From IMG/VR virus record IMGVR_UViG_3300022741_000079, positions 1 through 34,894 of that record: a DNA stretch of 34,894 nt, one strand, 5' to 3'. This document shows positions 12,255 through 34,894 of this stretch, in pieces (the first letter of the stretch is position 1; every line of letters begins with the position of its first letter). The translations under genes were made by a program, and so were the position numbers. The notes beneath the pieces are model-generated. The model was given only the letters and a program-made list of their open reading frames with translations. It was not told where the DNA came from and ran no database searches. Source of the DNA: a virus (Duplodnaviria; Caudoviricetes).

Positions 12255-12256
12255 GG

Positions 12257-18498: not shown

Positions 18499-18502
18499 CC
18501 GC

Positions 18503-19268: not shown

Positions 19269-19277
19269 CCCCGCGCG

Positions 19278-19547: not shown

Positions 19548-19583
19548 GCCTGCCGCCCATCTGGTCATAATTCGAAACAAAAT

Positions 19584-19636: not shown

Positions 19637-19666
19637 TTGCAGGCCAACAACCCACAGGGGGACACC

Positions 19667-19963
19667 ATGACCAACGTCTTTTCCATCCACACCCGCCGCG
19701 CGCTCACCGAACGCGGCCTCACCACCACCGCTTCCATCGTGCCCGGCAGCAACCGCGCCAGCTTCGTTGACCGCGTCCTGCACGCGGCCCGCGCCGGCAA
19801 GGCTGCCTTCCAGATCGGCGACAAGGTCGCTGACAAGCTCGACCCGCAGACCGTCGGGACGGTGCTGAAGGTGCATTACGCGGCCGAGGTCGAATACCTC
19901 GTCAGCTTCGGATGCTTCCGCTGCATCGTCGGCCAGTCCCGCCTGCAGCCGGCAGGTGCGTGA
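19667..19963 (+). CDS. Hypothetical early protein
   Basis: GGGGG RBS; first gene after PL; FQIGDKV SH3-like C-terminus. Confidence 0.6.
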   Translation: MTNVFSIHTRRALTERGLTTTASIVPGSNRASFVDRVLHAARAGKAAFQIGDKVADKLDPQTVGTVLKVHYAAEVEYLVSFGCFRCIVGQSRLQPAGA

Positions 19964-20271
19964 TGACCGAGAAGCAAATCACCGAGGCGTGGAGGGTACA
20001 CGAAGGCGAGGATTATCTGACAGTCTATGTCACGACTTTCACAAACGATCCAACCGTCTTCACCATCAATCACCCGTCCGCTGAAGACCGCCGCCGCGCC
20101 AGCATTGCCGCCGCCGCGCCAGCCATGAAGTCCATCATCGAGAGACTTATTCAATGGGACAAAGATTTTCCGGTCAACTGCCACAACGGCTACGCCGGAC
20201 TGCAGGAGCTAAATAAAATAATTGCGGACGGCGCTGCCATTGTCGCCAAAGCAAAAGGCGGTGCAGCATGA
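19963..20271 (+). CDS. Hypothetical early protein
   Basis: TGATG coupling; ASIAAAAPAM motif common in phage early proteins. Confidence 0.6.
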   Translation: MTEKQITEAWRVHEGEDYLTVYVTTFTNDPTVFTINHPSAEDRRRASIAAAAPAMKSIIERLIQWDKDFPVNCHNGYAGLQELNKIIADGAAIVAKAKGGAA

Positions 20272-20744
20272 CCCAGATCATCACCGAGCAAGCCCTGTCC
20301 AGCGCGAAGATGGAGGACTTCGAGTCCGCCGTCTGCCGCATCGACCACATCCTGCATGTCGCATCCGCCGTCGCCTGCGACAGAGTGTCCGACGAGTTCG
20401 AAGAATTCGCGGAATGGGCGATTGAGGACGACGCCAAGATGCGGCAGGCCTTCATCAAGGCCCTGTCCGAATGGGAAGGCGTGTTCCGCGACATGGACGA
20501 ATACGAACATGACGCGACAGAGCTGCCCGGCATCATGCTCGATTACGGCATCTGCGCCGGATACATCTTCAAACTCAGCACCCCCGTCCCCAAATGGCGC
20601 CGTGACCGCGCTAGTGCCAGCTACTCATGGGGACATACCAAATTCACATGGCTCTATGCTGAAACGCTGGAGGAAGGCGAGCAGGCCTGTCTCGCGTGGT
20701 CCAAAGCATTCTGGGAATCGCAAAAGACGGAGGCGGAAGAATGA
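20268..20744 (+). CDS. Hypothetical acidic early protein
   Basis: 158 aa; ATGA overlap; YSWG...TWLYAETLEE. Confidence 0.65.
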   Translation: MTQIITEQALSSAKMEDFESAVCRIDHILHVASAVACDRVSDEFEEFAEWAIEDDAKMRQAFIKALSEWEGVFRDMDEYEHDATELPGIMLDYGICAGYIFKLSTPVPKWRRDRASASYSWGHTKFTWLYAETLEEGEQACLAWSKAFWESQKTEAEE

Positions 20745-20944
20745 CCGTCGATCCGAACATCGCAAGACGGATGCGCACAGCGCAGGACGAAGAAGCCCTG
20801 ACGCGCAGCGCCGGCCAGATCACCGACCCCTACGAAGACGACGAAGGCATCCAGCCGGAGATGTTCTTCCGCAGCATCGCGTGGTCGCTGGCCATCGGCG
20901 CGTTCCTGATAGCCCTCGCCGTCTGGCGCGTCATCGAAAGCTGA
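20741..20944 (+). CDS. Small protein with a C-terminal TM helix
   Basis: ATGA overlap; SIAWSLAIGAFLIALAVW. Confidence 0.55.
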   Translation: MTVDPNIARRMRTAQDEEALTRSAGQITDPYEDDEGIQPEMFFRSIAWSLAIGAFLIALAVWRVIES

Positions 20945-21027
20945 TTACTACCGCCAACGGCACAGGCGGCCCACTGTGCCGAGAACCCACAGGGAAGGGG
21001 CGGGCCTTAAACCCGCCCCTCTTGAGG

Positions 21028-21423
21028 ATGCTGCTACCGAAAGACCCCGCGCTGCGCGACCGCAAATGGCTGGACGAACTCCGGAACCGCCCCTGCGTCA
21101 TCCTCGGGCACGGATCGCCCGTGCGTGTCGGCGCCCACGTCCGCTGGCGCGGTAACGGCGGCGTCGCCCTGAAACCGTCCGATGACCGTGCTGTGCCACT
21201 GGATAGTGGCCTCCATGTCCGGCAGCACAACATGGGCGAGGTCGATTTCTGGCGCGAGCATCTGCCGCAGAACCCTGCCTTCAAGCGCGCCTGCTGGGCG
21301 GCGCTCCAGCGCACGGGCAACCTTCCCAAAGACGCGCACCCGGACGAGCTGATGATGCTCGCCATCCTCGCGTGGGCCAGTCAGGAATACCGCATCTGGA
21401 AACAACACGGAGCCATGCCATGA
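21028..21423 (+). CDS. DUF968-like (HNH-related) putative nuclease
   Basis: RDRKWLDELRNRPCVI...AHVR...GGVALKPSDDRAVPL...H..QH..GE..FW. Confidence 0.7.
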   Translation: MLLPKDPALRDRKWLDELRNRPCVILGHGSPVRVGAHVRWRGNGGVALKPSDDRAVPLDSGLHVRQHNMGEVDFWREHLPQNPAFKRACWAALQRTGNLPKDAHPDELMMLAILAWASQEYRIWKQHGAMP

Positions 21424-21590
21424 CCCAGTACACCGAAATCGCCGTCCACATCGTCCACGAAACCGACCGCGCCCTGCTGGTCGATGGCGGCTTCGGGCAG
21501 GTCCGGGTACCCAAAAGCCAGATCACGTCATGGACGGCCAACACCATCACCCTGCCGGAATGGCTGGCCAAGAAGAAACGCCTCATCTAG
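21420..21590 (+). CDS. Small hypothetical protein (paralog 1)
   Basis: HETDRALLV...VPKSQ...TLPEWLAKKKRL. Confidence 0.7.
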   Translation: MTQYTEIAVHIVHETDRALLVDGGFGQVRVPKSQITSWTANTITLPEWLAKKKRLI

Positions 21591-21607
21591 CCGAAAGGAG
21601 AACCCCG

Positions 21608-21784
21608 ATGAACCAGACCGTCACCATCCACGCCCGCCGCGTCAAGGAAACCGACAACGCGCTGCTCGTCGAGACGCCGCAGGGCCGGCGCGAATGGCTT
21701 CCCAAAAGCCAGACGAACTGGAGCCAGTACACCACCAGCTATGAAATCCCCCTCTGGCTTGCGCGCAAAAAGCGCCTCGCCTGA
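21608..21784 (+). CDS. Small hypothetical protein (paralog 2)
   Basis: KETDNALLV...WLPKSQ...EIPLWLARKKRL; AAAGGAG RBS. Confidence 0.7.
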   Translation: MNQTVTIHARRVKETDNALLVETPQGRREWLPKSQTNWSQYTTSYEIPLWLARKKRLA

Positions 21785-21868
21785 TTGCGTTTATGTAATC
21801 CCTCTGGGGGGGGTAAATCATCCGGCGGAGCGCCCCCACGCTTCGCCTCACAAGAAGGAACCACCATC

Positions 21869-22099
21869 ATGATCGACCGCCAAATCAAACAGGAACTCGC
21901 CGAAGAACTCAAAGGCCAGTTCATGGCCTTTCACGCTCTCGCCCTGATTAAAACCGTCATCTCGAAGCCCGCAGAAGGCGCGGACATGGATGCAGCCGCA
22001 TCGAAGATGGTCGCCGAACAGGGCAAGGATGCCGCCGTATGGGCCGAGAAGTTCATGGACAAGATCGAGGCCGCCTATGCGGCACGGGTGCCTGCATAA
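21869..22099 (+). CDS. Hypothetical protein
   Basis: AAGGA RBS; MIDRQIKQEL... Confidence 0.6.
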   Translation: MIDRQIKQELAEELKGQFMAFHALALIKTVISKPAEGADMDAAASKMVAEQGKDAAVWAEKFMDKIEAAYAARVPA

Positions 22100-22107
22100 A
22101 CGCTTAT

Positions 22108-22178
22108 GGGGCGGTCGGCGTGGAATGGTGCTAAAAACCATGCCGAGTAATTCCAGCGCACTCGGAGCCGCCCCACCA
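22108..22178 (+). ncRNA. Candidate structured RNA with a tRNA-like acceptor stem and 3' ACCA
   Basis: GGGGCGG/CCGCCCC-A-CCA closing stem around ATGGT/ACCAT and CCGAGT/ACTCGG hairpins; intergenic. Confidence 0.4.
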
Positions 22179-22201
22179 ACCTTTAACAACCGGAGGAATC
22201 C

Positions 22202-22435
22202 ATGACCACCATCAACGACCTGCCCCCCAACGTCCAAGCCCGCCTCGACCAGATGACGGCCGCCTACAAGGCGCTGCACGGCATCTTCGGCGACGGCACG
22301 CACTTCGCGCTGCTCGTCTTCGCGCCGAGCAAAGCGCCCGACAGCCGGCAGGACTTCACCACCAGCTGCGACAACAAGGCCGAAGCCATCGAGGCCATGC
22401 AGGTTTTCATCGACGGCCAAACCGCACGGAGCTAA
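22202..22435 (+). CDS. Hypothetical protein
   Basis: GGAGG RBS; FALLVF motif. Confidence 0.65.
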   Translation: MTTINDLPPNVQARLDQMTAAYKALHGIFGDGTHFALLVFAPSKAPDSRQDFTTSCDNKAEAIEAMQVFIDGQTARS

Positions 22436-22440
22436 CCGCC

Positions 22441-23190
22441 ATGACTGCACAGAAAGCTATAGATAAATTACCCACCCCAGAGCTTCTGCCTTGCCCGTTT
22501 TGCGGGTGTAAGGACATTGACCCAGAAGGTGTTGCCTATTATCCGCAGGGAGACAAGGATAAAGGATTGCACCATGATCCCGCGTGTAATCAATGCAGCG
22601 CAACAACTGCTTATCCATGGAACACCCGCGCCGCGACAAAGCCAGCCGTGCCGCAGCAGATGATCGACATCGTGCAGCAGCTGAGCGCGAATGTTCAGGT
22701 GCTGATGAACGTCATCAAAGACCCGGCCGGCGGAACGGAACCGGCAAAGTGGATGGTTCTGCAAGTAGCGCAAGACACCGTTGACCGGGCAAAAGAGATT
22801 ATCGGAGCGCAGCCACCCAGCCTTCCCTGCGTCTGCTGCGGCAAGCCCGCGCAAACCGCGACACCGGACGATGCAGAGATGTGCCACGAGTGCTTCGGCC
22901 AGTTCAACGCGACAGAATATGGCAACCTGCGCAAGCGCTTCGAAGAGCTGATCCAGCGCGACTACCCTGACGCCGATCTCGAAGACGCGCTCGACCCCTG
23001 CCGGCCGCTGCCGGACAGTCCGATCGCACGGCTGCAGGCAGAGAACGAGGTCATGACCGAGGCCCTGCTCTACTACGCTTCCCCCGAAACCTATGAAGAC
23101 GCGTTCGACCGCATCTTGCGCGACGGCGGGGATAAAGCCCGCGCCGCCCTCGGCAAGCATGACCAAACGCAGGAGACCCGCGCGCCATGA
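22441..23190 (+). CDS. Lar-family restriction alleviation domain protein (mosaic)
   Basis: ELLPCPFCG...CNQCSA...WNTRA N-terminus; second Cys cluster CVCCG...CHEC. Confidence 0.65.
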   Translation: MTAQKAIDKLPTPELLPCPFCGCKDIDPEGVAYYPQGDKDKGLHHDPACNQCSATTAYPWNTRAATKPAVPQQMIDIVQQLSANVQVLMNVIKDPAGGTEPAKWMVLQVAQDTVDRAKEIIGAQPPSLPCVCCGKPAQTATPDDAEMCHECFGQFNATEYGNLRKRFEELIQRDYPDADLEDALDPCRPLPDSPIARLQAENEVMTEALLYYASPETYEDAFDRILRDGGDKARAALGKHDQTQETRAP

Positions 23191-23354
23191 AAGTCTGGGA
23201 ATTGATACAGCGCCTTGAGCGGATGCCTGCCGGTGCCGATGTCCTCATCAGCAAAGGCGAAACAAGCTGGCACGTCCTCGACGTTGATGGTGGCGGCTTG
23301 GAGCAGGAGTTCATCTGCCCCGTGAGCATCTACCCCGGCAGAAAGGACGCCTGA
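23187..23354 (+). CDS. Small hypothetical protein, 55 aa
   Basis: MKVWELIQRLERMPAGADVLI; ATGA overlap. Confidence 0.6.
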   Translation: MKVWELIQRLERMPAGADVLISKGETSWHVLDVDGGGLEQEFICPVSIYPGRKDA

Positions 23355-23356
23355 TG

Positions 23357-23557
23357 CTAGTCGCCCAGAAACCGACGCTCACGCATCGGCGCGACTTCCG
23401 TCTGCCCTGCGCACATCCAGCAGGAGCAGGCGCGGCAATGCACCGCAGCCAGACGCCCGACCTCTCGGACCGATGGCGCGGGCACCCGCCACAGCCGCAT
23501 GACACGGCGGGCGCGGTCCTTCATCCGCTGTTCGTCCTGTCTGCGCCGCGCTCTCAT
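23357..23557 (-). CDS. Small basic Cys-motif protein, antisense to the operon
   Basis: GGAGGG RBS; Arg-rich; HCRACSCWMC motif. Confidence 0.6.
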   Translation of the reverse strand: MRARRRQDEQRMKDRARRVMRLWRVPAPSVREVGRLAAVHCRACSCWMCAGQTEVAPMRERRFLGD

Positions 23558-23604
23558 CCCTCCATTGTGACTCGACCAACCCCCTAAACGAAAGGACCAC
23601 GCCT

Positions 23605-24327
23605 ATGCACGATCCCCATACAGTCGCCTTCGAGATCAAATATCCATGGAAGCGCAAGCCCTGCAAGCTATGGCCAAAGGGATACCGCGCCACCTTCATC
23701 ACAATCTGGCACGTCGATCCCGAGAAGGACGGCACAGACGACAGCTGCGGATGGTTCAAACGCGCGCGCCATGGCGACGAGCAGATGCTCGCACGCATTA
23801 AGAAAGACTTCCGCTTCGATTTCGACCATGGCTGGTTTGCGGAAGACGGCAAACCGCGCCTCTCTACCATCGCTATCGGCCTTGGCATGTTCAGGGTCGC
23901 GGCTTGGGAATTTTACAACCATGACCGCCGCCGTACCGACAGGTTCATGAACGAGTACCTGTACGACATCATTTCCTTCTCGGAAAACAACGTAGACTCA
24001 CTGCACAACTCCATCGTCGGGACGTACGGATTCCCCGACAAGGAAGAGCGGATTTCCTACTTCGCAGCCATTGTCTACGGCTGCCTGCTTCGCTGGACGC
24101 AGCCTTGGTATAAGCATCCCCGCTGGCATGTCTGGCACTGGCGCATCCAGTTCCATCCTTGGCAAAACCTGAAACGCCGGTTCTGGGATCGCTGCTCCAA
24201 ATGCGGGAAACGTGGCTTCAAGCCGGAGCATGGCAGCGCGGTCGGCAACTGGTCTGGTACCGAGATCTGGCATAGCACCTGCGACGGCCAAGCCCAAGCG
24301 GCAAAGCCCGACAAGGAGGCCGCATGA
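23605..24327 (+). CDS. Hypothetical Trp/His-rich protein
   Basis: 240 aa; ITIWHVDPEKDG, HPRWHVWHWRIQ, CSKCG; AAAGGA RBS. Confidence 0.7.
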   Translation: MHDPHTVAFEIKYPWKRKPCKLWPKGYRATFITIWHVDPEKDGTDDSCGWFKRARHGDEQMLARIKKDFRFDFDHGWFAEDGKPRLSTIAIGLGMFRVAAWEFYNHDRRRTDRFMNEYLYDIISFSENNVDSLHNSIVGTYGFPDKEERISYFAAIVYGCLLRWTQPWYKHPRWHVWHWRIQFHPWQNLKRRFWDRCSKCGKRGFKPEHGSAVGNWSGTEIWHSTCDGQAQAAKPDKEAA

Positions 24328-24530
24328 CAATCCCCGCCCACATCACCGACAGCATCGCCCACCACCTCGACCAAATCGGCCGTTTCTTCAAGAACCCGAA
24401 AATCACCCTCGTTGTCCGCGCGCCAGACCTCGCCGATGGCGATCTGGTCATGACGGCCGACAACCTCGATGACGCCATCGCGGCCATCCAGCGCCTGCAA
24501 GCGCGTCAGGCAAAGGCAGGTGCAGCATGA
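24324..24530 (+). CDS. Hypothetical protein
   Basis: GGAGG RBS, ATGA overlap. Confidence 0.65.
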   Translation: MTIPAHITDSIAHHLDQIGRFFKNPKITLVVRAPDLADGDLVMTADNLDDAIAAIQRLQARQAKAGAA

Positions 24531-25045
24531 CCGACAAAACATACTTCATCGTCAAGGAGCCGGGCATGTCACCGCGTGAGATGCGCCCGATAGGTAGCGA
24601 GTTCGAGTTCGCTAAAAAGCTGATCGCTCAATGCCCGGAGGGAACAGCGATTATCCATGTCCTCATCTGCGGGGACAACCTATATGCCGAGGACGCCAGC
24701 ACCTTCGTTGTCATGGTCGAAGCCATGGTGGCGATGAACAAGGAACAGGAGGCTATCGTTGACCGGAACGAACAGCTTCTTCGGCAGATGGTCGGCACGT
24801 ATACCGGCGCATATGTTGCGGACATCCGTCGCTGCCTTTCGGAGGCCGAAGCACCCAGCAGCTGGGCGCCCCTCGAAATCGTAGACAAGCCAACCGGGCA
24901 ATCGCAGGACGAGGACTGGGGCTCCTTCAAACACGTCTTTGTCGACCAGTATCAAGACGGCGGCATGGAGGGCGACAGCTTCGCCGGATACATCTACATC
25001 CCCCTGCCCGACGGCAAATACCTCAAAGCCCACTATTCCTGCTGA
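24527..25045 (+). CDS. Hypothetical protein
   Basis: ATGA overlap; VFVDQY...GDSFAGYIYIPL. Confidence 0.65.
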   Translation: MTDKTYFIVKEPGMSPREMRPIGSEFEFAKKLIAQCPEGTAIIHVLICGDNLYAEDASTFVVMVEAMVAMNKEQEAIVDRNEQLLRQMVGTYTGAYVADIRRCLSEAEAPSSWAPLEIVDKPTGQSQDEDWGSFKHVFVDQYQDGGMEGDSFAGYIYIPLPDGKYLKAHYSC

Positions 25046-25060
25046 CGAAAGGCCCCGCCC

Positions 25061-25351
25061 ATGTCCCTCAAAGCCAAACTCCAACTGCACATGAAGCTGC
25101 ACAAAGGCGGCAGCGTTTACGTCTGGGAGGCCACCGACTATCCCGGTCTGCAGATCTGCGACCGGCGCGAGACCAGCAAAGACCCTGTCGTCCGGACGAT
25201 CACCTACAAGGATCAGGAATACAAGACCATTGCCGATGCCGTCGAAGCAGCGAAAGCCGCTGCGCCTGTTCTTCAGCCGGGTTTGGTCTGCGCAGGATGC
25301 AACAAGCCGACCACGCTCTTCAAGCCTATCTGCGACGATTGCCTGCCATGA
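25061..25351 (+). CDS. Hypothetical protein with a C-terminal zinc finger
   Basis: CAGC...CDDC. Confidence 0.6.
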   Translation: MSLKAKLQLHMKLHKGGSVYVWEATDYPGLQICDRRETSKDPVVRTITYKDQEYKTIADAVEAAKAAAPVLQPGLVCAGCNKPTTLFKPICDDCLP

Positions 25352-25626
25352 CCGCCAGCGACCTCTTCGGCAATCCGGTATCCGCAGCCGCCCTGCAGCG
25401 TAAGCCTGCGCTGTTGAAGGGAACGCGGCGCGAAGCCCGCGCCTCGGATCTTCCCGGCCCTGCCGGCGAAACCTGCAGGACGTGCCGTCACGCCTATTAC
25501 CGGCAGCAAGGCAAGCGCTACTGGAAATGCGCCATCGCCAAACGTGCAGCCACGAATGGCCCCGGTACCGACATCCGCCTTAAAGACCCCGCCTGTGCGC
25601 GGTGGGAAAAGGAAGACACGCCGTGA
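25348..25626 (+). CDS. Small Cys-rich hypothetical protein
   Basis: GPAGETCRTCRH...YWKC...TDIRLKDPACARW; ATGA overlap. Confidence 0.65.
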   Translation: MTASDLFGNPVSAAALQRKPALLKGTRREARASDLPGPAGETCRTCRHAYYRQQGKRYWKCAIAKRAATNGPGTDIRLKDPACARWEKEDTP

Positions 25627-25648
25627 TGCCTGTTCCCTGCCCCGTCAG

Positions 25649-25831
25649 CTTTCTCCGTTTGCGTACCTCTCAAGCATCGTGCTGTCCCATGCCATACGCG
25701 GGCGCTTCCCGCGTCAACAGGAATAATCGGTTCCCCCTGAAGGTTTCCCCCAATTTTCCTGTATGACGCCGCCCCCGCTGCTGGCTTTTCGGGGACATGC
25801 CCGAGAGGCAACGCAAAACAAAAGGAGAAAG
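25649..25831. promoter_or_regulatory. Long imperfect hairpin; putative ssDNA (Frpo/ssi-like) promoter 1
   Basis: Nested pairs CTTTCTCC/GGAGAAAG, TTTGCGT/ACGCAAA, CCTCTC/GAGAGG, TGTCCC/GGGACA, GCGTCAACAGGAA/TTCCTGTATGACGC. Confidence 0.65.
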
Positions 25832-25834
25832 ACC

Positions 25835-26041
25835 ATGACGAAGAAGAAAGAGAACAAGGCCCCCACGATGTCCGCATTCCACGTCCGCAAGGGCAGAGAC
25901 GGCGGCAAAGGCTTCTGGACCCGCATCGGCGCCGCATGGCCGCACGAAGACGGCAACGGCTTCAACATCCAGCTCGACTGCGTGCCGGTAGACGGCAAGA
26001 TCGTCCTGCGCAAGGCCGACGAAGACGAGGCGGGCGCGTAA
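25835..26041 (+). CDS. Small plasmid-type protein, putative ssDNA-binding (DUF736-related), 68 aa
   Basis: FWTRIGAAWPHEDGNGFNIQLD motif; AAAGGAG RBS. Confidence 0.65.
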   Translation: MTKKKENKAPTMSAFHVRKGRDGGKGFWTRIGAAWPHEDGNGFNIQLDCVPVDGKIVLRKADEDEAGA

Positions 26042-26084
26042 GCGCCCCCTCTCTTCCCTTCAACAGCAAGACGGAGGACTGAAC

Positions 26085-26303
26085 ATGACGGTAACCCGCG
26101 CAGCCATATCGGCCAACCTGCACGCGCTTGGCGAAATCCTCGACGATGCGCAGCTCCGAGTGTCCGAAGGCATCATGGCCATCGATGCTGAAGGCAACCA
26201 GAACGGCGCCATCGGCTCTGTCCTCGACCTCGACCGCAAGCTCGAAAGCGCCCTCGCGCTCCTGCGCGCGGCTCTCGCTCTTCACCGCAATGGAAAGGCT
26301 TAA
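26085..26303 (+). CDS. Hypothetical helical protein
   Basis: GGAGG RBS; GNQNGAIGSVL. Confidence 0.65.
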   Translation: MTVTRAAISANLHALGEILDDAQLRVSEGIMAIDAEGNQNGAIGSVLDLDRKLESALALLRAALALHRNGKA

Positions 26304-26305
26304 TC

Positions 26306-26638
26306 ATGGCAAAGCAGTACACCGTCCGCTTCAGCGAAACCGTTCATTACGCAGCCACCGTCACGGCCGACACGCCGCAGGACGCCTGCGCACAGGTGCG
26401 GGAGCAGTTCGAGCAAGGCGGATACGTCCACGAGGAAACGACCTCCGTCAGCGACTACGTGGCAGAAGCCACCCCGAAAGGCACCGCCTTCGACCTCCTG
26501 CAGCAGGCAGATGGTCACATCTCGAAGGCTGCGAAAGCCTGCCGCGAAAACGACCAGAACGGCGTCCTCGGCGCTCTGATCCACGTCACGGCCATCCTGC
26601 AGTCCGTCAGGCGCAACATCCGCAACCTCATACCTTAA
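26306..26638 (+). CDS. Hypothetical two-domain protein
   Basis: YTVRFSETVHYAATVTADTPQDA N-domain; C-domain resembles 26085-26303. Confidence 0.65.
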   Translation: MAKQYTVRFSETVHYAATVTADTPQDACAQVREQFEQGGYVHEETTSVSDYVAEATPKGTAFDLLQQADGHISKAAKACRENDQNGVLGALIHVTAILQSVRRNIRNLIP

Positions 26639-26661
26639 CCCTTAACCCGAAAGGTAAAAGC

Positions 26662-26853
26662 ATGACCAGCAGCATCAAATGGAACAGTCGCGAGTACCAG
26701 ACGCTCAGGAAGTGCGCCGAAGCGCTCGCAAACTCCAGACCTGACAAAGGTTTCGAGGCACGTCACAAGCAGGCGTATATGGAAGCCGCCAAACTGCTGA
26801 ACGACATCGGCGATCAGCACGACAAGGCTCAAGAGAGTGCAGGTGCAGCATGA
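26662..26853 (+). CDS. Hypothetical protein, 63 aa
   Basis: AAAGGT RBS; MTSSIKWNSREY... Confidence 0.55.
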   Translation: MTSSIKWNSREYQTLRKCAEALANSRPDKGFEARHKQAYMEAAKLLNDIGDQHDKAQESAGAA

Positions 26854-27074
26854 TGACCACCGTAAAACAAGCTTGGGAAATGTGCTGCCCGAACTGTGGC
26901 GCAGATAGCCGCATCGACGTTCTCGCTCAAATCTGGGTTCGCCTTCTGCCCAATGGCACCGACGCTGCGCAGGCGTCTGAAGCCAGCGAAGAGTGGGATA
27001 ACAATTCCCCCTGCATCTGCGAGCACTGCGGCCACAGAGGCACCGTAGGCGACTTTGCCACCGGACAACCGTAA
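26850..27074 (+). CDS. Zinc-ribbon protein
   Basis: CPNCG...CEHCG. Confidence 0.7.
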   Translation: MMTTVKQAWEMCCPNCGADSRIDVLAQIWVRLLPNGTDAAQASEASEEWDNNSPCICEHCGHRGTVGDFATGQP

Positions 27075-27103
27075 CTATCCACCCCAACCGAAAGGAAACC
27101 ACC

Positions 27104-28930
27104 ATGACCGACATCCAGCACATCCCCCTGAACAAGCTCATCGCATGGGAAGGCAACGCCCGCCGCACCGTGTCCGATGAAGGTATCAACGAACTGGCCG
27201 CATCCATCGCGGCCGATGGCCTCATCAACCCGCTGACCGTCATCCCCGCCAAGGGCAAAGGCCAGAACTTCCACGTCGTCGCCGGCAGCCGACGCCTGCG
27301 CGCGCTGCAGCTGCTTGCCGACCGCAAAGAGCTGAAGGCCGCAGACGGTATCCGCTGCACCGTCCTGCCCGCCGATGCCGACGCGGAACAAATCAGCCTG
27401 GCCGAGAACGTGGTGCGCGAGAACATGCACCCCGCCGACGAGTTCGAGGCATTCCGTGACCTCATCGACAAAGGCAAATCCATCGATGATGTCGCCGCCG
27501 CCTTCGGCAAAGCCCGTGCTTGGGTTGTGAAGCTACTGAAGCTGGCCCGCGTCAGTCCCAAGGTCATCGAGGCATACCGCGCCGGGAAGATCACCCTCGA
27601 CATGGTCATGGCCTTCGCCATCACCGACGACCACGAAGCGCAGGAAGAAGTGCTGTCAAAGCTGCGCCCGCATAACGATGCCGATGACGTCCGCGGCATG
27701 CTGACCGAGGATGACATCCGCATTACCGACAAGCGCGTGAAATTCGTCGGTCTCAAGGCTTACGAAAAAGCAGGCGGCACCGTCAAACGCGACCTGTTCA
27801 GCAACGACGAGAAGGACGGCTATGTCGAAGACACCGCCCTGCTCGCAAAGCTGATCACCGACAAGCTCGACAAGGCCGCGGCAAAGCTCCAGAAAGAGGG
27901 CTGGAAATGGGTCGAAGCCCGCGAGGAGTTCGACTACACCGCCCGCAACAAGTTCAAGCAGGTCTATGCGCAGAAAGCCCCGCTGCCTGCGGAGCTGGAA
28001 GCCGAGGTCAAAAAGCTCGGAGAAGAACGCGCAAAGCTCGAAGCCGAATACGATGCCGATGAGGATGCCGAATGGCCTGACCGCATCGACGAGATTGACC
28101 AGCGTCTCGAAGAAATCGAGGACGGCCGCGAGGAATCCTTCACACCCGAGCAGCTGTCATACTGCGGCGCCGTGGTCAGCATGGACTACTACGGCAAGCA
28201 GGAAATCTATCGCGGACTCGCGCGACCGGAAGACCTGCCGAAGCCTGAAGGCAAAGCCAAAGGCAAGGCGTCACCTGCAGCAGACGGTCAAACCGAACCG
28301 GCAGAGCAATCCCCCGCCCTGTCCGCAGCCCTCATCGAGAGCCTGACCGAACACAAGTCGGCCGCCATCGCAGCCTGCCTGATGGACGACCGGCGCATCG
28401 CGCTTGCCGCGGTGGTCTACACCATGGCGCTTGAGGTGTTCGACAACTACGTCGAAAGCTGCCTTGGCTTCCGCATCACGTCCCGCGACCTCGACGCGGT
28501 CGAAGGCTCCAAGGCGTTCGACAAGTTGGAAGCAGCCCGCGAAAACTGGGGCCACAAAATCCCCGGCACGCCGGATGCTCTGTGGTCATGGTGCATGTTG
28601 CAGGACATCAATACGTTGCTCGACCTGCTGGCCTTCTGCACGGCAAAGACCGTCCACGCTGTGGAGCGCAAGAACGACCGCCGCGGCGACAGACTCGAGA
28701 ACGCGACGCAGCTGGCCTGCGAGTTGAACCTCGACATGGCCGAATGGTTCACGCCCACGGCAGAGAACTACTTCGGCAAAGTCGGCAAACCGCAAATCGT
28801 CGAAGCCCTGCAGGAGGTCGGCGCTTCCCTGCCCCCGGCAACGATGAAGAAAGGCGACATGGCCAAGTTTGCCGAGGAGCAACTGGCCGGCAAAGGCTGG
28901 GTGCCTGAAATCCTCCGTCTCCCCTCGTAA
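27104..28930 (+). CDS. Long ParB-domain protein (plasmid leading-region type)
   Basis: 608 aa; ELAASIAADGLINPLTV, VVAGSRRLRAL, SLAENVVRENMHPADEFEAF, HTH, YEKAGG..KRDLF, WFTPTAENYF, GWVPEILR. Confidence 0.9.
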   Translation: MTDIQHIPLNKLIAWEGNARRTVSDEGINELAASIAADGLINPLTVIPAKGKGQNFHVVAGSRRLRALQLLADRKELKAADGIRCTVLPADADAEQISLAENVVRENMHPADEFEAFRDLIDKGKSIDDVAAAFGKARAWVVKLLKLARVSPKVIEAYRAGKITLDMVMAFAITDDHEAQEEVLSKLRPHNDADDVRGMLTEDDIRITDKRVKFVGLKAYEKAGGTVKRDLFSNDEKDGYVEDTALLAKLITDKLDKAAAKLQKEGWKWVEAREEFDYTARNKFKQVYAQKAPLPAELEAEVKKLGEERAKLEAEYDADEDAEWPDRIDEIDQRLEEIEDGREESFTPEQLSYCGAVVSMDYYGKQEIYRGLARPEDLPKPEGKAKGKASPAADGQTEPAEQSPALSAALIESLTEHKSAAIAACLMDDRRIALAAVVYTMALEVFDNYVESCLGFRITSRDLDAVEGSKAFDKLEAARENWGHKIPGTPDALWSWCMLQDINTLLDLLAFCTAKTVHAVERKNDRRGDRLENATQLACELNLDMAEWFTPTAENYFGKVGKPQIVEALQEVGASLPPATMKKGDMAKFAEEQLAGKGWVPEILRLPS

Positions 28931-28947
28931 CCGCCATGGTCAAACTC

Positions 28948-28980
28948 GCCCCGGTGCCTTCGGGCATCGGGGCATCTTTT
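28948..28980 (+). terminator. Intrinsic terminator
   Basis: GCCCCGGTGCC-TTCG-GGCATCGGGGC-ATCTTTT. Confidence 0.75.
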
Positions 28981-28999
28981 CAACCCCTCAAATGAGTAA

Positions 29000-29752
29000 A
29001 TGATCATGACATCACAGCAAGACAGACAGCGACCGCCGCCCGACAAATACGCCAAGCTCATCGAGAAGCTGAAAAAGCTTTTCTCCCTCGCCAATTCCGC
29101 GAACCAGCACGAGGCCGAAGCCGCGCTCGGCATGGCGAACCGCCTTATGACGGAACACCAGATTGCTTTGGCCGACATCGATTTCAGCGACAGCGGGAGC
29201 GTAACGCGCGAGGATATGGAGCTGGACGGCGGCCGGCAATCGACGTGGCTTGCATCCCTCGCCGGCAATGCGGCCATGCTGTATGACGCGCAGGCGTTTT
29301 ACTATTCGGGGCGCAGCGGACCGAACCTTCAGCTGCTGTTTGTCGGTACGCCGCCCGATATTGCTGCGGCCAAAATGACCTTCACCTATCTGCATCGCTC
29401 ATGGCAGAGCATCGTCAAGCTCGACCAGCAAGAGTATCGGCCGCGCAACGTCCGTACGTTCAGGCGCTCCCACGGCATCGGTTTCAATGCGGCAATCCAC
29501 AAGCGCGTGAAAGAGCTGGTCGAAGAGCGGCAGCGCAATGTCAGGTCCGCAACCGGCCGCGACCTCGTCGTCGTGAAAGACGCTGCCGTGAAGGAATTTC
29601 TGGAAGACCTCAACATCAAATCCAGAAAGCCCACCGGCGATAACGACAAGACAGGCCTTTATGCCGGATACCAGCGCGGCAAAGAAATTCCGCTGCACGG
29701 CGCCATCGAGGAAGAAGACAAACCGCTGATGCTCGAAAGCCGCAATCGTTGA
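29000..29752 (+). CDS. DUF2786 domain-containing protein
   Basis: KLIEKLKKLFSLANSANQHEAEAALGMANRLMTEHQI...FVG...GYQRGKEI. Confidence 0.8.
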   Translation: MIMTSQQDRQRPPPDKYAKLIEKLKKLFSLANSANQHEAEAALGMANRLMTEHQIALADIDFSDSGSVTREDMELDGGRQSTWLASLAGNAAMLYDAQAFYYSGRSGPNLQLLFVGTPPDIAAAKMTFTYLHRSWQSIVKLDQQEYRPRNVRTFRRSHGIGFNAAIHKRVKELVEERQRNVRSATGRDLVVVKDAAVKEFLEDLNIKSRKPTGDNDKTGLYAGYQRGKEIPLHGAIEEEDKPLMLESRNR

Positions 29753-29773
29753 CTCTCGGGCCGGCCATGCGGG

Positions 29774-30715
29774 ATGATGGCTTCGACGGGTCTGATGACG
29801 ATAAGTATCCCTCACCCCATCCCCTATCAGGGCAGCAAGCGCCGCCTCGCCACGCTGATACTCAGCTACGCGCCCGAGCGCGTGGCCACCATGTACGAAC
29901 CCTTTGCAGGCTCGGCGGCAATGACGCTGGCCGCAGCGGCGCGGAACGTGGCGGCGCGGTACGTCATCGGGGATTCCCTCGACCCGCTGGCGTCCCTCTG
30001 GAAAGCCATCATCGAAGACCCGAAGCAACTGGCCGACGACTACGAAGCGGTATGGGAAGCGCAGAAAGAAAACCCGCGCGACCACTATCTGCAGGTGCGG
30101 TCGGAATACAACCGCAGCCACCAGCCCGTGCATCTGCTGTACCTGATGGCGCGCTGCGTGAAGAACGCCGTCCGCTTCAACGCCTATGGCGAATTCAACC
30201 AGTCAGCCGACCATCGGCGCACGGGCATGAACCCGCAGAAGATGCGCCAGCAGATCCTCGGCGCCAGCAAAATCCTGTCGAAGCGCTGCCGCGTGCAATG
30301 CGCCGATTATGCCGACCTGATGCAGGAGGCCACGTCCAAAGACCTCGTCTATATGGACCCGCCGTATCAGGGCGTCAGCGGCGTCCGCGACCCGCGCTAT
30401 CACCAGCAGCTGAACCTCGGCAAGCTCATTGACAATCTGGAACGCCTGAACATCCGCGGCGTGCCGTACTTGCTCAGCTTCGACGGCCGCCTCGGCGACA
30501 AGGAATACGGGCAGGAGCTGCCGAAGTCGCTGAACCTGACGCGCGTCCTCGTGAACACCGGCAGGTCGTCGCAGGCGACGCTCAACGGCGACACCGCCGA
30601 GACGGTGGAATCCGTCTATCTATCGCCCGGCTTGGGCGATGGCATCGAGGTCAGCGTCACCTTGTCGCCGGAGGAAACGCCCGTCGACCAGCTCGACCTG
30701 CTGGCGACGGCTTAA
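29774..30715 (+). CDS. DNA adenine methyltransferase (Dam/D12, alpha class); cognate MTase of the adjacent endonuclease
   Basis: PIPYQGSKRRLA, YEPFAGSAA (motif I), VYMDPPY (motif IV); start may be ATG 29795. Confidence 0.9.
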   Translation: MMASTGLMTISIPHPIPYQGSKRRLATLILSYAPERVATMYEPFAGSAAMTLAAAARNVAARYVIGDSLDPLASLWKAIIEDPKQLADDYEAVWEAQKENPRDHYLQVRSEYNRSHQPVHLLYLMARCVKNAVRFNAYGEFNQSADHRRTGMNPQKMRQQILGASKILSKRCRVQCADYADLMQEATSKDLVYMDPPYQGVSGVRDPRYHQQLNLGKLIDNLERLNIRGVPYLLSFDGRLGDKEYGQELPKSLNLTRVLVNTGRSSQATLNGDTAETVESVYLSPGLGDGIEVSVTLSPEETPVDQLDLLATA

Positions 30716-31425
30716 CCCTTCTCGTCCAGAATCTTCTTGATGTAATCGGGCAGCGGCATCTTCGCCTGCAGCGCGTGCTTCAACAGGCGCGCATGGTTTT
30801 TGACCTCGTCGTCCGTCCACGTCACGACTTCGCGCCGCACCTGCTGCATCGCCAGATGCGTGTAGGCTTCGGGCGTGCCCCAATAGCAGGACATGCACGT
30901 CTTGCGGTCTTTTATCTTTTGCCAGTTCGGGCAATGCTCGCACGTCCATGACTTGCCGCGCTGACAGGAGCCGCATATCAGCATGAACGCGGCCTGATTG
31001 GACTGGTCCGCTACGTCGTCGCCGGCCACCTCATACGGCACGCGATGGTCGATCTGCAGGTAACGGTCTTCGTATTCCTGAAAGCAGATGGCGCAGCGTC
31101 CGTCCTGCTTCGCATACAGGTCGGTCTTCAGCAGCTTCGAAAAAACCTGACGGCCGCCCAGCTTGTGGCGCTCGACCTTCGACAGGTCGCCGAAGCGATA
31201 CGCCGCGATGCTGCGGCCATGCGCGCCCTTGAGCGAGAAGGTTTCGAGAGGGATGCCCTGCTCCCGCACGTCACGCGCGGCGCGCGGCGGATGGTCGTAT
31301 CCGTAAACGTCCTTCAATTCCTCGGTCGTGATGTGGCCGTGTTTGAGGATATGGTCGATGACCGTCTTGGCACGCTTGGCCGTTATCTTCGCCAGCGCGT
31401 CGAGGAATTCCTGCGGCGGGTTCAA
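30712..31425 (-). CDS. HNH-family type II restriction endonuclease (SphI/NspI-like)
   Basis: [49 protein letters not shown]; convergent with the MTase, downstream of the C gene. Confidence 0.8.
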
Positions 31426-31643
31426 AATAGCTCCCGCGCTGGCACATCCAGCGCATCGGCAATCTTCTGGATGTTGACGAGGCTGACGTTTCTCTCGCCG
31501 CGCTCGATGCCGCCGATGTAGGTTCTATCCAGATCGCACGCGAGGGCGAGGGCTTCCTGCGAAAGCCCTTTCGCGGTGCGCAGCTCGCGCACACGCTGGC
31601 CGAACGCCTGCTTGATTGCCTCATCATTCTCTTTTCGGGGCAA
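31422..31643 (-). CDS. R-M controller (C) protein, XRE HTH
   Basis: [52 protein letters not shown]; C-boxes upstream; overlaps the endonuclease start. Confidence 0.88.
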
Positions 31644-31665
31644 GCCCTATCGAATCACCGCTGAT

Positions 31666-31691
31666 GACCATAAGTCCACGGACTTTAAGTA
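31666..31691 (-). promoter_or_regulatory. Tandem C-boxes
   Basis: Minus strand TACTTAAAGTC-CGTG-GACTTATGGTC, matching the GACTTATAGTC-type double C-box, 22 nt upstream of the C start. Confidence 0.8.
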
Positions 31692-31704
31692 CCGTCCCCA
31701 GCCG

Positions 31705-31731
31705 TGTTACAGAATTGGTAATTCTGTAACA
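31705..31731. other. Palindromic recombination (res) site of the adjacent resolvase
   Basis: TGTTACAGAATT-GGT-AATTCTGTAACA perfect inverted repeat; related half-site TTCTGTCACA at 31820. Confidence 0.65.
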
Positions 31732-31841
31732 GCCAGCCGCCCGCCGCGCAGCCCAAACCCGCAGAAAAGCCCGACTTCCCTGCCCCTTGCAGGCGGCGAC
31801 CTGATACAGTAATCATGAGTTCTGTCACAAACGGGGCAAAA

Positions 31842-32423
31842 ATGCAGATTTTCGACCAGCAAGGACGCCGCCTCTACTTCACCGAGGACGAGCGCAAGGG
31901 CTTCCTCCGGGCAGCCCAGAAGGCCCCCCGCGAGGTGCGGTCGTTCTGCTCGACCATCCTCTATACAGGCTGCCGGATATCCGAGACCTTGGCCCTGACC
32001 CCGCAGAGCATCGACCTGTCCGGCCGCGTCATCACCTTCGAGAGCCTCAAGAAGCGCAAGAAGGGCGTGTTCCGTCAGGTGCCGGTACCGCCCGACCTCA
32101 TCGACACGCTCGATATGGTGCACGGCATCCGCGAGCTGCAGCGCAAGGGCGGCAGCAGAGCAGCCCAGCGTCTCTGGCCGTGGAGCCGGATGACGGGTTA
32201 TCGCAAGGTGCAGGACGTGATCGATGCTGCCGGCATCGCGGCAGGCCCCCACGCCTGCCCGAAAGGTCTGCGTCACGGGTTTGGCATTCAGGCTGTCAGC
32301 AAGGGCATCGCCCTGAACATGGTGCAGAAGTGGCTCGGCCATGCGCAGCTGACCACGACAGCTATCTACGCCAATGCTGTTGGCGAAGAAGAACAGAGCA
32401 TCGCAGCCCGCATGTGGTCATGA
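31842..32423 (+). CDS. Small tyrosine recombinase (plasmid resolvase type)
   Basis: YTGCRISE, PKGLRHGF, WLGHAQLTTTAIY catalytic motifs; catalytic domain only; alternative ATG at 31815. Confidence 0.9.
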   Translation: MQIFDQQGRRLYFTEDERKGFLRAAQKAPREVRSFCSTILYTGCRISETLALTPQSIDLSGRVITFESLKKRKKGVFRQVPVPPDLIDTLDMVHGIRELQRKGGSRAAQRLWPWSRMTGYRKVQDVIDAAGIAAGPHACPKGLRHGFGIQAVSKGIALNMVQKWLGHAQLTTTAIYANAVGEEEQSIAARMWS

Positions 32424-32463
32424 CCACTCCCCCACGTTCCAGCAATCCAGCGCAGTGACGTTG

Positions 32464-32683
32464 ATGTCGGTTTATCCATAAGCGCCCCTTGGAGGCGTTT
32501 CAACTTCACTGGACACCTAACAGGCCCGCGCGTCCCGTCAATGACGAATTTTCCCCTCCCGCCGCATGTTCCACATGCAAAGCATGGCGGGATTCCTCGC
32601 GGGGCCAAAATTCTATGACCGTCCGCGCCTTCAGGCCTGTTTGACGGTGGCCATGTTGAACCGCACAAAGGGAGCGAAGACAT
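32464..32683. promoter_or_regulatory. Long imperfect hairpin; putative ssDNA (Frpo/ssi-like) promoter 2
   Basis: Nested pairs TTCAAC/GTTGAA, TGGACACC/GGTGGCCA, AACAGGCC/GGCCTGTT, GAATTTT/AAAATTC, TCCCGCC/GGCGGGA. Confidence 0.65.
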
Positions 32684-32777
32684 GGATACCGAAGATTTCA
32701 ACCTCGACCTGGCCGCCGAGATTCTGGAAGCGCACGAGCGCGAGCTGTTCGACGACGCCTTGGAGGTGCTGCAATGA
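32682..32777 (+). CDS. Tiny acidic protein, 31 aa
   Basis: MDTEDFNLDLAAEILEAHERELFDDALEVLQ; GGGAG RBS; stop overlaps the next ATG. Confidence 0.55.
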   Translation: MDTEDFNLDLAAEILEAHERELFDDALEVLQ

Positions 32778-32944
32778 ACACCTTCGACCAAGAGAACATC
32801 ACCGCCGAGCAGGCGCTGCACGATTCGATGGACTGCCTGCGCATGGCCGAGAAAATCCTGCGCGATCTGGGCCGAGCCGCTGTCGCTGACCTGATGCGCC
32901 AACAAGCTGACAAGAGCCTTCGGGTGCTGGGAGGCCGCGCATGA
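32774..32944 (+). CDS. Small hypothetical protein, 56 aa
   Basis: MNTFDQENITAEQALHDS...; GGAGG RBS; ATGA overlaps at both ends. Confidence 0.6.
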   Translation: MNTFDQENITAEQALHDSMDCLRMAEKILRDLGRAAVADLMRQQADKSLRVLGGRA

Positions 32945-33585
32945 CCATCATCACCGGCGACTGCACCGAGGTGCTGAAGACCCTGCCCGACGCCAGCGTG
33001 GATCTGGTGCTGACCGACCCGCCCTACTTCGTCGCGTACCGCGACAGGTACGGCCGCCGCGTCCGGAACGACGGCGCCGGCGACACGGCCGTCCTCGGCG
33101 CTTTCGCCGAGGTGTACCGTGTCATGAAGCCGGACACGCTCTGCGTATCCTTTTATGGATGGCAGGCCATCGATGCCTTCATGGCCGCATGGAAGGCCGC
33201 GGGCCTGACGCCCGTCGAGCATATCGTCTGGCGCAAGAAGTACGCATCCAGCCGCCGCTTCCTGAAGCGCACCCACGAGCAGGCCTATGTCCTCGCCAAG
33301 GGTCGGCCTTCCCTGCCCCGCCAGCCGCTCGACGACGTGCAGCCGTGGCACTATTCCGGCAACCGCTTCCACCCGACCGAAAAGGCGGTCGAAACGCTCT
33401 CGCCCCTCATCGAGGCTTTCACCGACCCCGGCGACGTCGTGCTCGACCCGTTCGCCGGCAGCGGCAGCACGCTGGCCGCCGCCGCGCTGCTGCGCCGCAA
33501 ATACATCGGCATCGAGCTGGAACCCACATATTGCGCACACGCGCACAAACGCCTCAAAGGCGTGGCGCGTTATCTGGCCGCGTGA
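32941..33585 (+). CDS. Beta-class amino-methyltransferase, M.EcoGIX/YubD-like plasmid family
   Basis: VLTDPPY, SFYGW..IDAFMAAWK.AG, HEQAYVLAKGRP, YSGNRFHPTEK, VLDPFAGSGST. Confidence 0.88.
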   Translation: MTIITGDCTEVLKTLPDASVDLVLTDPPYFVAYRDRYGRRVRNDGAGDTAVLGAFAEVYRVMKPDTLCVSFYGWQAIDAFMAAWKAAGLTPVEHIVWRKKYASSRRFLKRTHEQAYVLAKGRPSLPRQPLDDVQPWHYSGNRFHPTEKAVETLSPLIEAFTDPGDVVLDPFAGSGSTLAAAALLRRKYIGIELEPTYCAHAHKRLKGVARYLAA

Positions 33586-33898
33586 CGGCCTCCCGGGCGC
33601 TTTCGTCCGACCACAGCAGGCGCTCGGCCGTCCGCGCGATCGACGCGCGCTTGCGCCGCGCTTCGCCCTTCAGCAGCGGAATGGTGCGCCACCAACCCAC
33701 GGCGGGCTCGACCTCGCACCGCTTCAGCGTGACGGTCAGCCATTCCGCGTCGGCCTTGACCACCTGCCCGACCAGCTTGCGCGTCCCGATCTTCACCGGC
33801 TTTGCCTTCTTGCGGCGCGTCGGTTTCCAGACCGCCTCCGTCCAGCGGATGACGTCGCCCTCGATGATGTCCTGCCCGCATGTCGTCCAATTTGCCAT
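33554..33898 (-). CDS. Hypothetical basic protein, 114 aa
   Basis: MANWTT...GDVIRWTEAVW...RLLWSDESAR; divergent from parA. Confidence 0.6.
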   Translation of the reverse strand: MANWTTCGQDIIEGDVIRWTEAVWKPTRRKKAKPVKIGTRKLVGQVVKADAEWLTVTLKRCEVEPAVGWWRTIPLLKGEARRKRASIARTAERLLWSDESAREAVTRPDNAPRL

Positions 33899-33912
33899 CT
33901 GCTGCCCCGCTG

Positions 33913-33996
33913 TGAGTAAATGAGTAGGTGAGTATATGAAGCCAAGCCCTTGAAGTTTTGAGGGTTTGAGTATTTGAAGTTTTGAGGCTATACTCA
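33913..33996 (+). repeat. 8-bp periodic repeats: centromere/operator (parH-like) overlapping the parA promoter
   Basis: TGA(G/A) units at 33913, 33921, 33929, 33937 and 33951, 33959, 33967, 33975, 33983; inverted ACTCA at 33992; TTGAGT-N17-TATACT promoter. Confidence 0.8.
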
Positions 33997-34023
33997 CGCG
34001 CAGGGGACAGCAAGAGGCAAAGA

Positions 34024-34680
34024 ATGACAGTCATATCGCTCCTGAACCAGAAGGGCGGGGTCGGCAAGACCACGCTCTCTATCCACATCGCAACCGCACT
34101 GGCCGAATGCGGCACCGTGCTGCTGGTCGATGCCGACCCGCAAGGCTCGGCGCTCGACTGGAAAGCGCAGCGCAGCGCGCCGGACAAGTTTCCGGTCATC
34201 GGCCTGCCCAAGCCGACGCTGCACCGCGAGGTCAGCGCCATCGGCCAGCATTACGACTGGATCGTCATCGACGGCCCGCCGCGGGTGAACGAGCTGGCCA
34301 AGTCCGCCATCGCCGCCAGCGACATCGTCCTGATACCCGTCCAGCCGTCACCCTTCGACGTCTGGGCCGCGCAGGACATCATTGACCTCGTGAACGAATG
34401 TTCGGTCATCAAGCCCGACCTCCAGACCCGCTTCGTCATCAACCGGCTTTTCTCCGGCACGAAGCTCGGGGCAGAGGTCAACGAAGCCCTTGCGGGTTTC
34501 GAAATCCCTGTCATGCACGCCGCCATCCGGAACCGGACGGAATATGCAAAGGCCGTGCGCCTCGGCATGACGGCCGTCGAAACCGAACCCGCAAGCCCCG
34601 CCGCGCAGGACGTACAGGCGCTGGCGCAGGAAATCCGCGCTCTGATGGTCAGGGAGAGCCTTAATGTCGCAGCAGGTTAA
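34024..34680 (+). CDS. parA: ParA (type Ib, ParF-like) partition ATPase
   Basis: NQKGGVGKTT, LVDADPQGS, VIDGPP, IPVQPSPFD; short form with no N-terminal HTH. Confidence 0.92.
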   Translation: MTVISLLNQKGGVGKTTLSIHIATALAECGTVLLVDADPQGSALDWKAQRSAPDKFPVIGLPKPTLHREVSAIGQHYDWIVIDGPPRVNELAKSAIAASDIVLIPVQPSPFDVWAAQDIIDLVNECSVIKPDLQTRFVINRLFSGTKLGAEVNEALAGFEIPVMHAAIRNRTEYAKAVRLGMTAVETEPASPAAQDVQALAQEIRALMVRESLNVAAG

Positions 34681-34894
34681 TTGGGGGCAGCGCCCCTCGA
34701 AGAAGCCGGAGGGCAGCGCCGTTGCCACCGAACAGCTGGAAGCCTTCGTCAACCCGAAGGCCAAGACCAAACGCCTGAACGCCGAAATCCCGAGCGACCT
34801 GCATGCCCGCGTCAAAGCAGGCTGCGCGCTTGAGGGCAGGGAAATGACGGATGTCCTTATCGAGCTTCTGGAACAGCGGTTTCCAGCGCGTTGA
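34664..34894 (+). CDS. ParG-like ribbon-helix-helix centromere-binding protein
   Basis: KRLNAEIPSDLHARVKAGCALEGREMTDVLIELL; flexible N-terminus; overlaps parA. Confidence 0.8.
   Translation: MSQQVNWGQRPSKKPEGSAVATEQLEAFVNPKAKTKRLNAEIPSDLHARVKAGCALEGREMTDVLIELLEQRFPAR

Follow-up and report, generated by a model that had tools for sequence, protein, structure and literature searches.

We analysed a tailed-phage record of 34,894 nucleotides (IMG/VR virus record IMGVR_UViG_3300022741_000079; this whole stretch, whose first letter falls within a virion gene and whose last letters are the parG stop codon, is called the window) together with its continuation, and found a temperate podophage and the backbone of a mobilisable plasmid on the same contig, with the backbone occupying the place where a relative of the phage carries its integrase. 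The continuation, L081, is a stretch of a 51,656-nt metagenome contig retrieved by a scan with the window's recombinase; its first 13,080 nt are identical letter for letter to window positions 21815 to 34894, so that the window edge at 34894 corresponds to L081 position 13080. Window and L081 make up the 42.4 kb examined, and the last ~9.2 kb of the contig, beyond L081, are outside the data. We consider it probable (roughly 0.65) that the element is a single replicon, maintained as a plasmid in the lysogen, packaged in full and open to mobilisation through the mating pore of a helper.

The linkage of the two halves can be read directly from the contigs. The phage early operon, a series of small open reading frames (ORFs) on the plus strand (19278 to 25626), ends 22 nt ahead of a long hairpin beginning at 25649, with which the plasmid part opens. 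This junction lies inside single contigs in three sequencing runs whose contigs match the element (X1, X2 and X3). In X1, one 49,074-nt contig spans window positions 14900 to 34894 and L081 607 to 20606 with 0 differences, and a 7,207-nt contig of X2 crosses the junction. X3 is a wastewater run from a different study and year; its 7,442-nt contig holds phage early genes followed by 25343 to 26468, across the junction, and the ParB gene, at ~94% identity. X3 is an independent relative, ~94–97% identical, carrying the same junction within one contig, of the kind the initial annotation had proposed to look for, and the break that might have appeared near 25630 is absent from the contigs of separate runs. 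A 17,780-nt contig of X3 extends from the restriction system past the relaxase at 96–98% identity with a different 2.6-kb block at par/rep (against L081 12075–14538), and a third contig covers the repressor region with part of the lytic initiator replaced (17585–17999); because X3 differs at these two places, both replicons look like exchangeable cassettes. A chimeric assembly of a phage and a plasmid could be entertained since the evidence comes from contigs and not from raw or long reads, but separate assemblies agree letter for letter over the junction, no long repeat was found there, and a diverged relative sampled in a different habitat and year shows this junction within a single contig, which makes this explanation very improbable.

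The relaxase and origin of transfer (oriT) that the initial annotation had expected to the right of 34894 are present in L081 as a relaxase gene and a candidate oriT, together with a coupling protein gene. The module comprises, on the plus strand, a type IV coupling protein with a DnaJ tail (14666–16891; PF02534, 249.5 bits), the candidate oriT (17022–17048), the accessory RHH protein MobC (17453–17875; PF21983) and the relaxase (17872–19290; PF03432), the last two scoring above their cut-offs. The N-terminal tyrosine and the histidine triad of the relaxase are visible, and its nearest plasmid homologues are typed MOBP and reside on mobilisable plasmids. One of these relatives, pcai42B, carries a J-domain ORF at the place matching the DnaJ end of the coupling protein. 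No mating-pore (type IV secretion system) gene was found among the 76 ORFs scanned (65 in the window and 11 in L081), and the uncovered 9.2 kb probably offer little room for such a system since the remaining virion genes must also fit there. The module therefore reads as mobilisable and not conjugative, and the donor of the leading region, taken initially for a conjugative plasmid, was probably a mobilisable backbone.

The oriT-like core is a 9-nt word with a hairpin immediately after it; the arms of the hairpin vary in sequence but stay paired. Word and hairpin occur upstream of the relaxase in 13 of 18 loci that include the relaxase N-terminus, with ~0.02 expected per locus; the motif was defined on 8 loci and confirmed in 5 of 10 new ones, two of the misses having less than 500 nt of upstream sequence. 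A YAWCYTG-type word at L081 ~16915–16921 was considered as nic and rejected, as it is not conserved. In known oriTs, nic has been described as lying in a conserved core with a hairpin on its 5' side (PMC4652767). Since the hairpin lies 5' of the core on the minus strand, the minus strand would be the one transferred, as the initial annotation proposed, with the coupling protein, rep, par, methyltransferase and ParB operon entering first and the relaxase last.

The mobilisation genes appear to be maintained. In comparison with X3, the relaxase has 1 difference in residues 1–260 and 23 beyond, the coupling protein has 15 differences in its first 224 residues and 2 in the remaining 517, and MobC is 98% identical, a distribution that fits selection on the catalytic parts, though the differences may partly predate the fusion. 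They bear on the alternative that the element is a true phage-plasmid living by Rep and Par only, with relaxase, oriT and leading region as relics of the donor plasmid. Such relics would agree with the sporadic occurrence of conjugation genes among phage-plasmids (10.1101/2025.11.07.687105) and with a fusion that may be recent, but relaxase, MobC and coupling protein are intact and their catalytic parts are conserved relative to X3 even though the adjoining par/rep block has been exchanged, and we regard this alternative as quite unlikely.

Lysogeny as a plasmid, postulated before L081 was available, is supported by a plasmid replicon: RepA (L081 13109–14065, plus strand; PF04796, RepA_C) is followed by an origin with three 15-nt iteron-like repeats and DnaA-box-like words (L081 ~14070–14200). 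The partition genes named in the initial annotation, parA (34024–34680) and parG (34664–34894), both on the plus strand, stand as described. A cluster of TGAGTA repeats at 33913–33934 (plus strand) forms candidate ParG sites. The same repeats recur at 28993 and at L081 13086–13107 and 19679–19692, so that they lie upstream of the DUF2786 gene, parA and repA, and downstream of the relaxase gene; they are candidate ParG operator or centromere sites. A 114-aa protein without a family match is encoded upstream of parA on the minus strand (33554–33898), and its homologues occur in 9 backbone loci, beside parA where this was checked. The gene called a resolvase (31815/31842–32423, plus strand) encodes a short tyrosine recombinase that consists of the PF00589 catalytic domain without an N-terminal domain; its nearest relatives are those of small alphaproteobacterial plasmids, and it is likely a plasmid resolvase.

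Assembly sizes point to a circle. The start of the 51,656-nt contig falls near window position 1, within the gene of an 844-aa virion protein, while the X1 contig extends 6,363 nt further left and the whole 844-aa protein is recorded on a contig of 51,670 nt. All 23 of the element's proteins that were found by exact look-up, phage and plasmid proteins alike, have 51,670 nt as their longest contig; 4 further proteins had no exact match. Two assemblies that differ by 14 nt in size and start at different points are best explained by a circle. The 14 nt presumably arise from two overlap lengths common in assemblers, 141 and 127, and we infer one circle of ~51,530 nt. This size agrees with the phage clade: the three nearest large-terminase relatives outside the element's own cluster (73–78% identity) lie on contigs of 49,856, 51,390 and 52,136 nt, the complete relative G012 measures 49,554 nt, and of 12 relatives with a completeness rating of 90% or more, 11 fall between 44 and 60 kb. 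With relatives' contigs at ~50–52 kb and a phage part of ~35 kb by itself, it is the whole fusion that fits. The X1 and X2 contigs share both end points, 7,817 nt right of 34894 and 6,363 nt left of position 1, which would be ~2.5 kb apart on the circle; a repeat, variable or invertible segment may lie there, near the expected tail-fibre site.

The place of the backbone is best seen against G012, one of the two closest capsid relatives compared (72%), which has the same late-gene order, an integrase ending its early operon and no plasmid genes; no integrase was found at the end of the early operon here. In the opposite direction, an integrated element in G041 (contig C1, ~1,584,000–1,623,400) has the backbone, RepA, origin, ParA and an integrase-like gene of its own. 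It resembles the present element in RepA (63%), origin (80%), coupling protein (62%) and relaxase domain (63%), and carries ~28 kb of cargo between relaxase and hairpin 1, which is the slot filled by the phage here if the element is circular. These exchangeable contents, the tyrosine recombinase present in 14 of 31 long phage relatives and the existence of known co-integrates (PMC10123127) would suit an ordinary prophage inserted site-specifically in a mobilisable plasmid, which excises and packages its own DNA only and travels by conjugation as a passenger. Such a prophage would lack the integrase that G012 has at the end of the operon; moreover, no direct repeat of at least 11 nt is shared between 25301–25700 and the 1.3 kb to the right of the relaxase, the phage part alone falls short of the size range of its relatives, and X3 has the same junction. 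We judge an inserted prophage of this kind improbable.

The phage half is well preserved in the part examined. Its virion and packaging module (1–14356, minus strand; Pfam/PHROG) encodes internal virion proteins, tail tubes A and B, the major capsid protein, a scaffold-like protein, the head-tail connector and the large and small terminase, the last of which in its large subunit is 41% identical to that of BPP-1. The SLT internal virion protein is cut at position 1; its full-length form is the 844-aa protein (P0136), identical over the first 306 residues. A Lambda O-like replication initiator (17318–17989, minus strand; PHROG 1032/391) would serve lytic replication. It is followed by a divergent helix-turn-helix pair (18199–18829), cro-like on the minus strand (18199–18450) and cI-like on the plus strand (18494–18829). 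No peptidase domain was found in the 111 residues of the cI-like repressor, one member of whose cluster has 254 aa; an antirepressor may be required for induction. Each of the 12 phage genes checked is an open frame with no internal stop, and the terminase, portal, tail tube A and a virion protein match relatives over their full length at 88–97%. This, and the agreement of the total size with the contigs of the clade, speaks against a mobilisable plasmid whose phage part has lost particle formation, comparable to P1-derived plasmids that gained mob after losing phage genes. Such a loss is the fate usually reported for P1-like elements with mob/oriT (PMC10879196), and neither lysis genes (endolysin, holin) nor tail-fibre or receptor-binding genes were seen in the 42.4 kb; G012 has them in the part corresponding to the uncovered ~9.2 kb. 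On balance we hold a defunct phage to be unlikely, though it is the rival to which we give the most weight.

The genes between the junction and parA have the make-up of a leading region. Behind hairpin 1 lie a 68-aa protein gene (25835–26041), four small ORFs of 72, 110, 63 and 74 aa that are part of the leading operon (26085–27074; the first has a homologue in locus L169), the 608-aa ParB-domain protein (27104–28930), whose reading in the initial annotation was correct, and a DUF2786/DUF7168 protein (29006–29752), all on the plus strand. The ParB-domain protein has full-length homologues chiefly on plasmids: 4983 of its 5000 best plasmid records cover at least 80% of its length and 3761 of these 5000 are conjugative plasmids, whereas coverage of at least 80% was reached in only 2 of 50,697 phage records, both unannotated. 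The initial gene list, otherwise retained, missed a type II restriction-modification system (29774–31643, both strands; PADLOC, Pfam) made up of a Dam-like methyltransferase on the plus strand and, on the minus strand, a nuclease (30712–31425) and a controller (31422–31643). A second methyltransferase (32941–33585, plus strand) belongs to the PRK13699 family, scoring 274.5 bits against a cut-off of 244, and has no match at E 1e-40 in the 50,697 phage records. The family is probably that of M.EcoGIX, a single-strand methyltransferase type, as the initial annotation had it, and membership of PRK13699 is borne out by the profile. The establishment genes (ParB-like, methyltransferase, small ORFs) are all on the plus strand to the left of the oriT candidate, the exceptions in this region being the nuclease, the controller and the 114-aa gene. 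Homologues of ParB and of M.EcoGIX have been assigned to DNA that is transferred early, in an orientation permitting expression from the incoming strand (PMC7736820), a paper in whose main text the term M.EcoGIX itself is absent.

Profile scans of the window proteins gave no match to the single-stranded DNA-binding protein (SSB), PsiB or Ard families. The 68-aa protein, initially described as SSB-like, has no significant SSB match. It is predicted to be mostly beta-strand and belongs to a very large unnamed family that is faintly DUF736-like, DUF736 being matched by 2 of 88 homologues; the family counts 1867 representatives at E 0.001, several of them matched in two places, and has conserved tryptophan and glycine residues. 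Structural comparison of a model of pLDDT 78 gave a best Z of 2.8 and no clear fold match; neither this model nor Pfam, the PDB profile or the ESM Atlas (best named rows 0.76–0.77) supports an SSB identity, although a missing fold match does not rule it out.

The two hairpins are candidate single-strand promoters, judging by their folding and sequence. The early operon was said to run into both of them; hairpin 1 (25649–25831) does lie immediately behind it, and hairpin 2 (~32470–32650) lies 6.8 kb further on. Hairpin 1 is a candidate Frpo-like promoter of the minus strand with folding z scores of -4.9 on the plus strand and -5.5 on the minus strand (0 of 200 shuffles as good), and hairpin 2, likewise a minus-strand candidate, has a z score of -3.07 (1 of 200 shuffles). 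In a GC-corrected scan of 845 windows they rank third and fourth after two coding windows, in the connector gene (9851–10050) and the methyltransferase gene (33051–33250), where minus-strand folding is stronger than in both hairpins. A minus-strand TTGACG lies in the stem of hairpin 1 (25717–25712) and another in hairpin 2 (32541–32536), and TTGAC in the arm serving as the would-be non-template strand is kept in 5 of 7 aligned sequences for hairpin 1 and in 6 of 6 for hairpin 2. Hairpin 1 is also 77–83% identical to DNA preceding 68-aa or ParB genes in four loci of metagenome-assembled genomes (MAGs). Both hairpins resemble the Frpo candidates of PMC11541004. Nothing in the window exceeds the Rfam threshold, and a sigma-70 scan gave chance-level counts by a method that cannot test fold-back promoters.

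The two halves have separate kin. From 80 capsid and 79 terminase loci we picked 31 long IMG/VR relatives of the phage, many of them fragments and all distant, and none of these has a relaxase or ParA; the relaxase has no match in the 50,697 phage records either. A ParB domain was seen in 1 of 36 capsid relatives, in an unrelated 574-aa protein, and the 198-aa recombinase of G058 has no backbone-like neighbours. The backbone, for its part, is present in acidobacterial and alphaproteobacterial MAGs, small plasmids and integrated elements that show none of this phage's structural genes in the stretches examined. Scans of IMG/VR with the window's right end, ParB, the recombinase, the relaxase and a single terminase gave no complete hybrid relative, and by eye no long contig size is common to the top 120 relaxase and top 120 terminase matches. 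A 91% ParB homologue lies on a 43,340-nt contig. The relaxase family was matched in 83 of 301 genomes of the order of G041, and the terminase gave one weak match only (40%) in the same 301 genomes. The host is likely alphaproteobacterial.

In having temperate tailed-phage genes, a plasmid initiator, partition genes and no canonical integrase in the part examined, the element resembles known phage-plasmids (P1, N15, SSU5 and the F116 community; PMC7969092, PMC12282955), among which the podovirus type is uncommon (PMC7969092). Unlike them, it has a relaxase, MobC, a coupling protein, a candidate oriT and a leading region. Conjugation elements have been reported in six phage-plasmids of a set with 222 members from E. 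coli and 1 from S. aureus; the six are ~175 kb long and possibly co-integrates or artefacts (PMC10123127), whereas the present element has the usual size of its clade. Fusions have been treated as likely impaired or sporadic (10.1101/2025.08.29.673033, 10.1101/2025.11.07.687105), and the P1-derived mobilisable plasmids likewise join phage ancestry to mob/oriT (PMC10879196). On the plasmid side, the MOBP plasmids pcai42B (Frigidibacter), pSREG01 (Sphingopyxis) and pTF4.1 (Acidithiobacillus) and the MAG relatives G037–G041 share the order oriT motif, MobC, relaxase, mostly with the coupling protein ahead; several also have parA, the 114-aa gene, hairpin 1 or 2, a ParB-like protein and the methyltransferase. 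They differ in that this phage's structural genes are unmatched in the stretches examined, G041 having a 458-aa integrase-like gene and defence-type cargo where the element carries the phage. On the phage side, BPP-1-like temperate podophages (Bordetella BPP-1, Caulobacter SR18/RapA and G012) are alike in the PF12236 connector, tail tubes and internal virion proteins, and differ in the missing relaxase and ParA noted above. Prophage DNA is likewise spread by conjugation in phage-ICE (integrative and conjugative element) tandems (PMC13651849) and on conjugative megaplasmids (10.64898/2026.02.21.707213). In both cases the prophage rides a separate self-transmissible element, in the tandems with an integrase of its own; here there is one small replicon, and no mating pore was found. 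Judged by title or the opening of the abstract, the top 20–25 matches of each literature search include no podophage-plasmid of capsid size that has a relaxase, a coupling protein and a leading region; two supplements that may list cases (Figure S14 of PMC10123127 and Table S4 of PMC7969092) were outside the search.

We propose that the lysogen would persist as a plasmid by means of RepA, the iteron origin, ParA/ParG and the short recombinase, with the restriction system as a stabiliser, and that lytic growth would start from the O-like initiator and end with packaging of the entire circle. In a cell with a compatible mating pore, MobC and the relaxase would nick the minus strand beside the conserved hairpin and the coupling protein would pass the nicked strand to the helper pore. 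On entry in the order coupling protein, rep, par, methyltransferase and ParB-like operon, both hairpins could fold in the entering strand and allow early expression of the plus-strand establishment genes, whereas the minus-strand restriction nuclease would be expressed only after the second strand is made. The combination of spread in virus particles with spread through the mating channel of another element is rarely reported. That the element represents a stable, capsid-sized phage-plasmid lineage with two working routes, virion infection and relaxase-driven conjugation via a helper pore, we regard as an evenly balanced proposition; it would reach receptor-less cells, enter as single-stranded DNA covered by the leading region, and then settle into plasmid lysogeny or undergo zygotic induction.

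Several observations weigh against a single replicon of this kind. A sibling of the phage core is found on 40,747-nt contigs, with identities of 96% (terminase), 90% (portal), 91% (tail tube) and 88% (virion protein). None of these contigs appears in a plasmid-side cluster, so that the fusion may be young. Runs X1 and X2 could both derive from the source sample itself, and the contigs of X3 are not seen joined to one another. The circle is deduced from assembly sizes, not from terminal repeats; the uncovered ~9.2 kb, being outside the data, may hold an integrase, and the lysis and tail-fibre genes are absent from the rest. Because a related word is found next to the oriT hairpin on the plus strand, sequence alone does not fix the nicked strand, and some doubt attaches to transfer of the minus strand. 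Both hairpins have -10 boxes far from the consensus, and two-sided changes affect 9 of 48 and 8 of 27 predicted pairs in six partly redundant sequences each.

What gives the element its interest is that phage core and mobilisation module are both intact and that the likely total size suits the capsid of the clade, with a junction repeated in an independent relative. Phage-plasmids are usually regarded as moved by virions and not by conjugation, and those that bear a relaxase have been read as oversized co-integrates, artefacts or former phages (PMC10123127, PMC10879196). Trimming of proviruses can hide such elements, as the virus record here ends at the parG stop codon, just before rep and mob. 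If both routes work, the host range of the phage would be uncoupled from receptor binding, and it could be tested directly how a prophage that enters in single-stranded form escapes or exploits zygotic induction.

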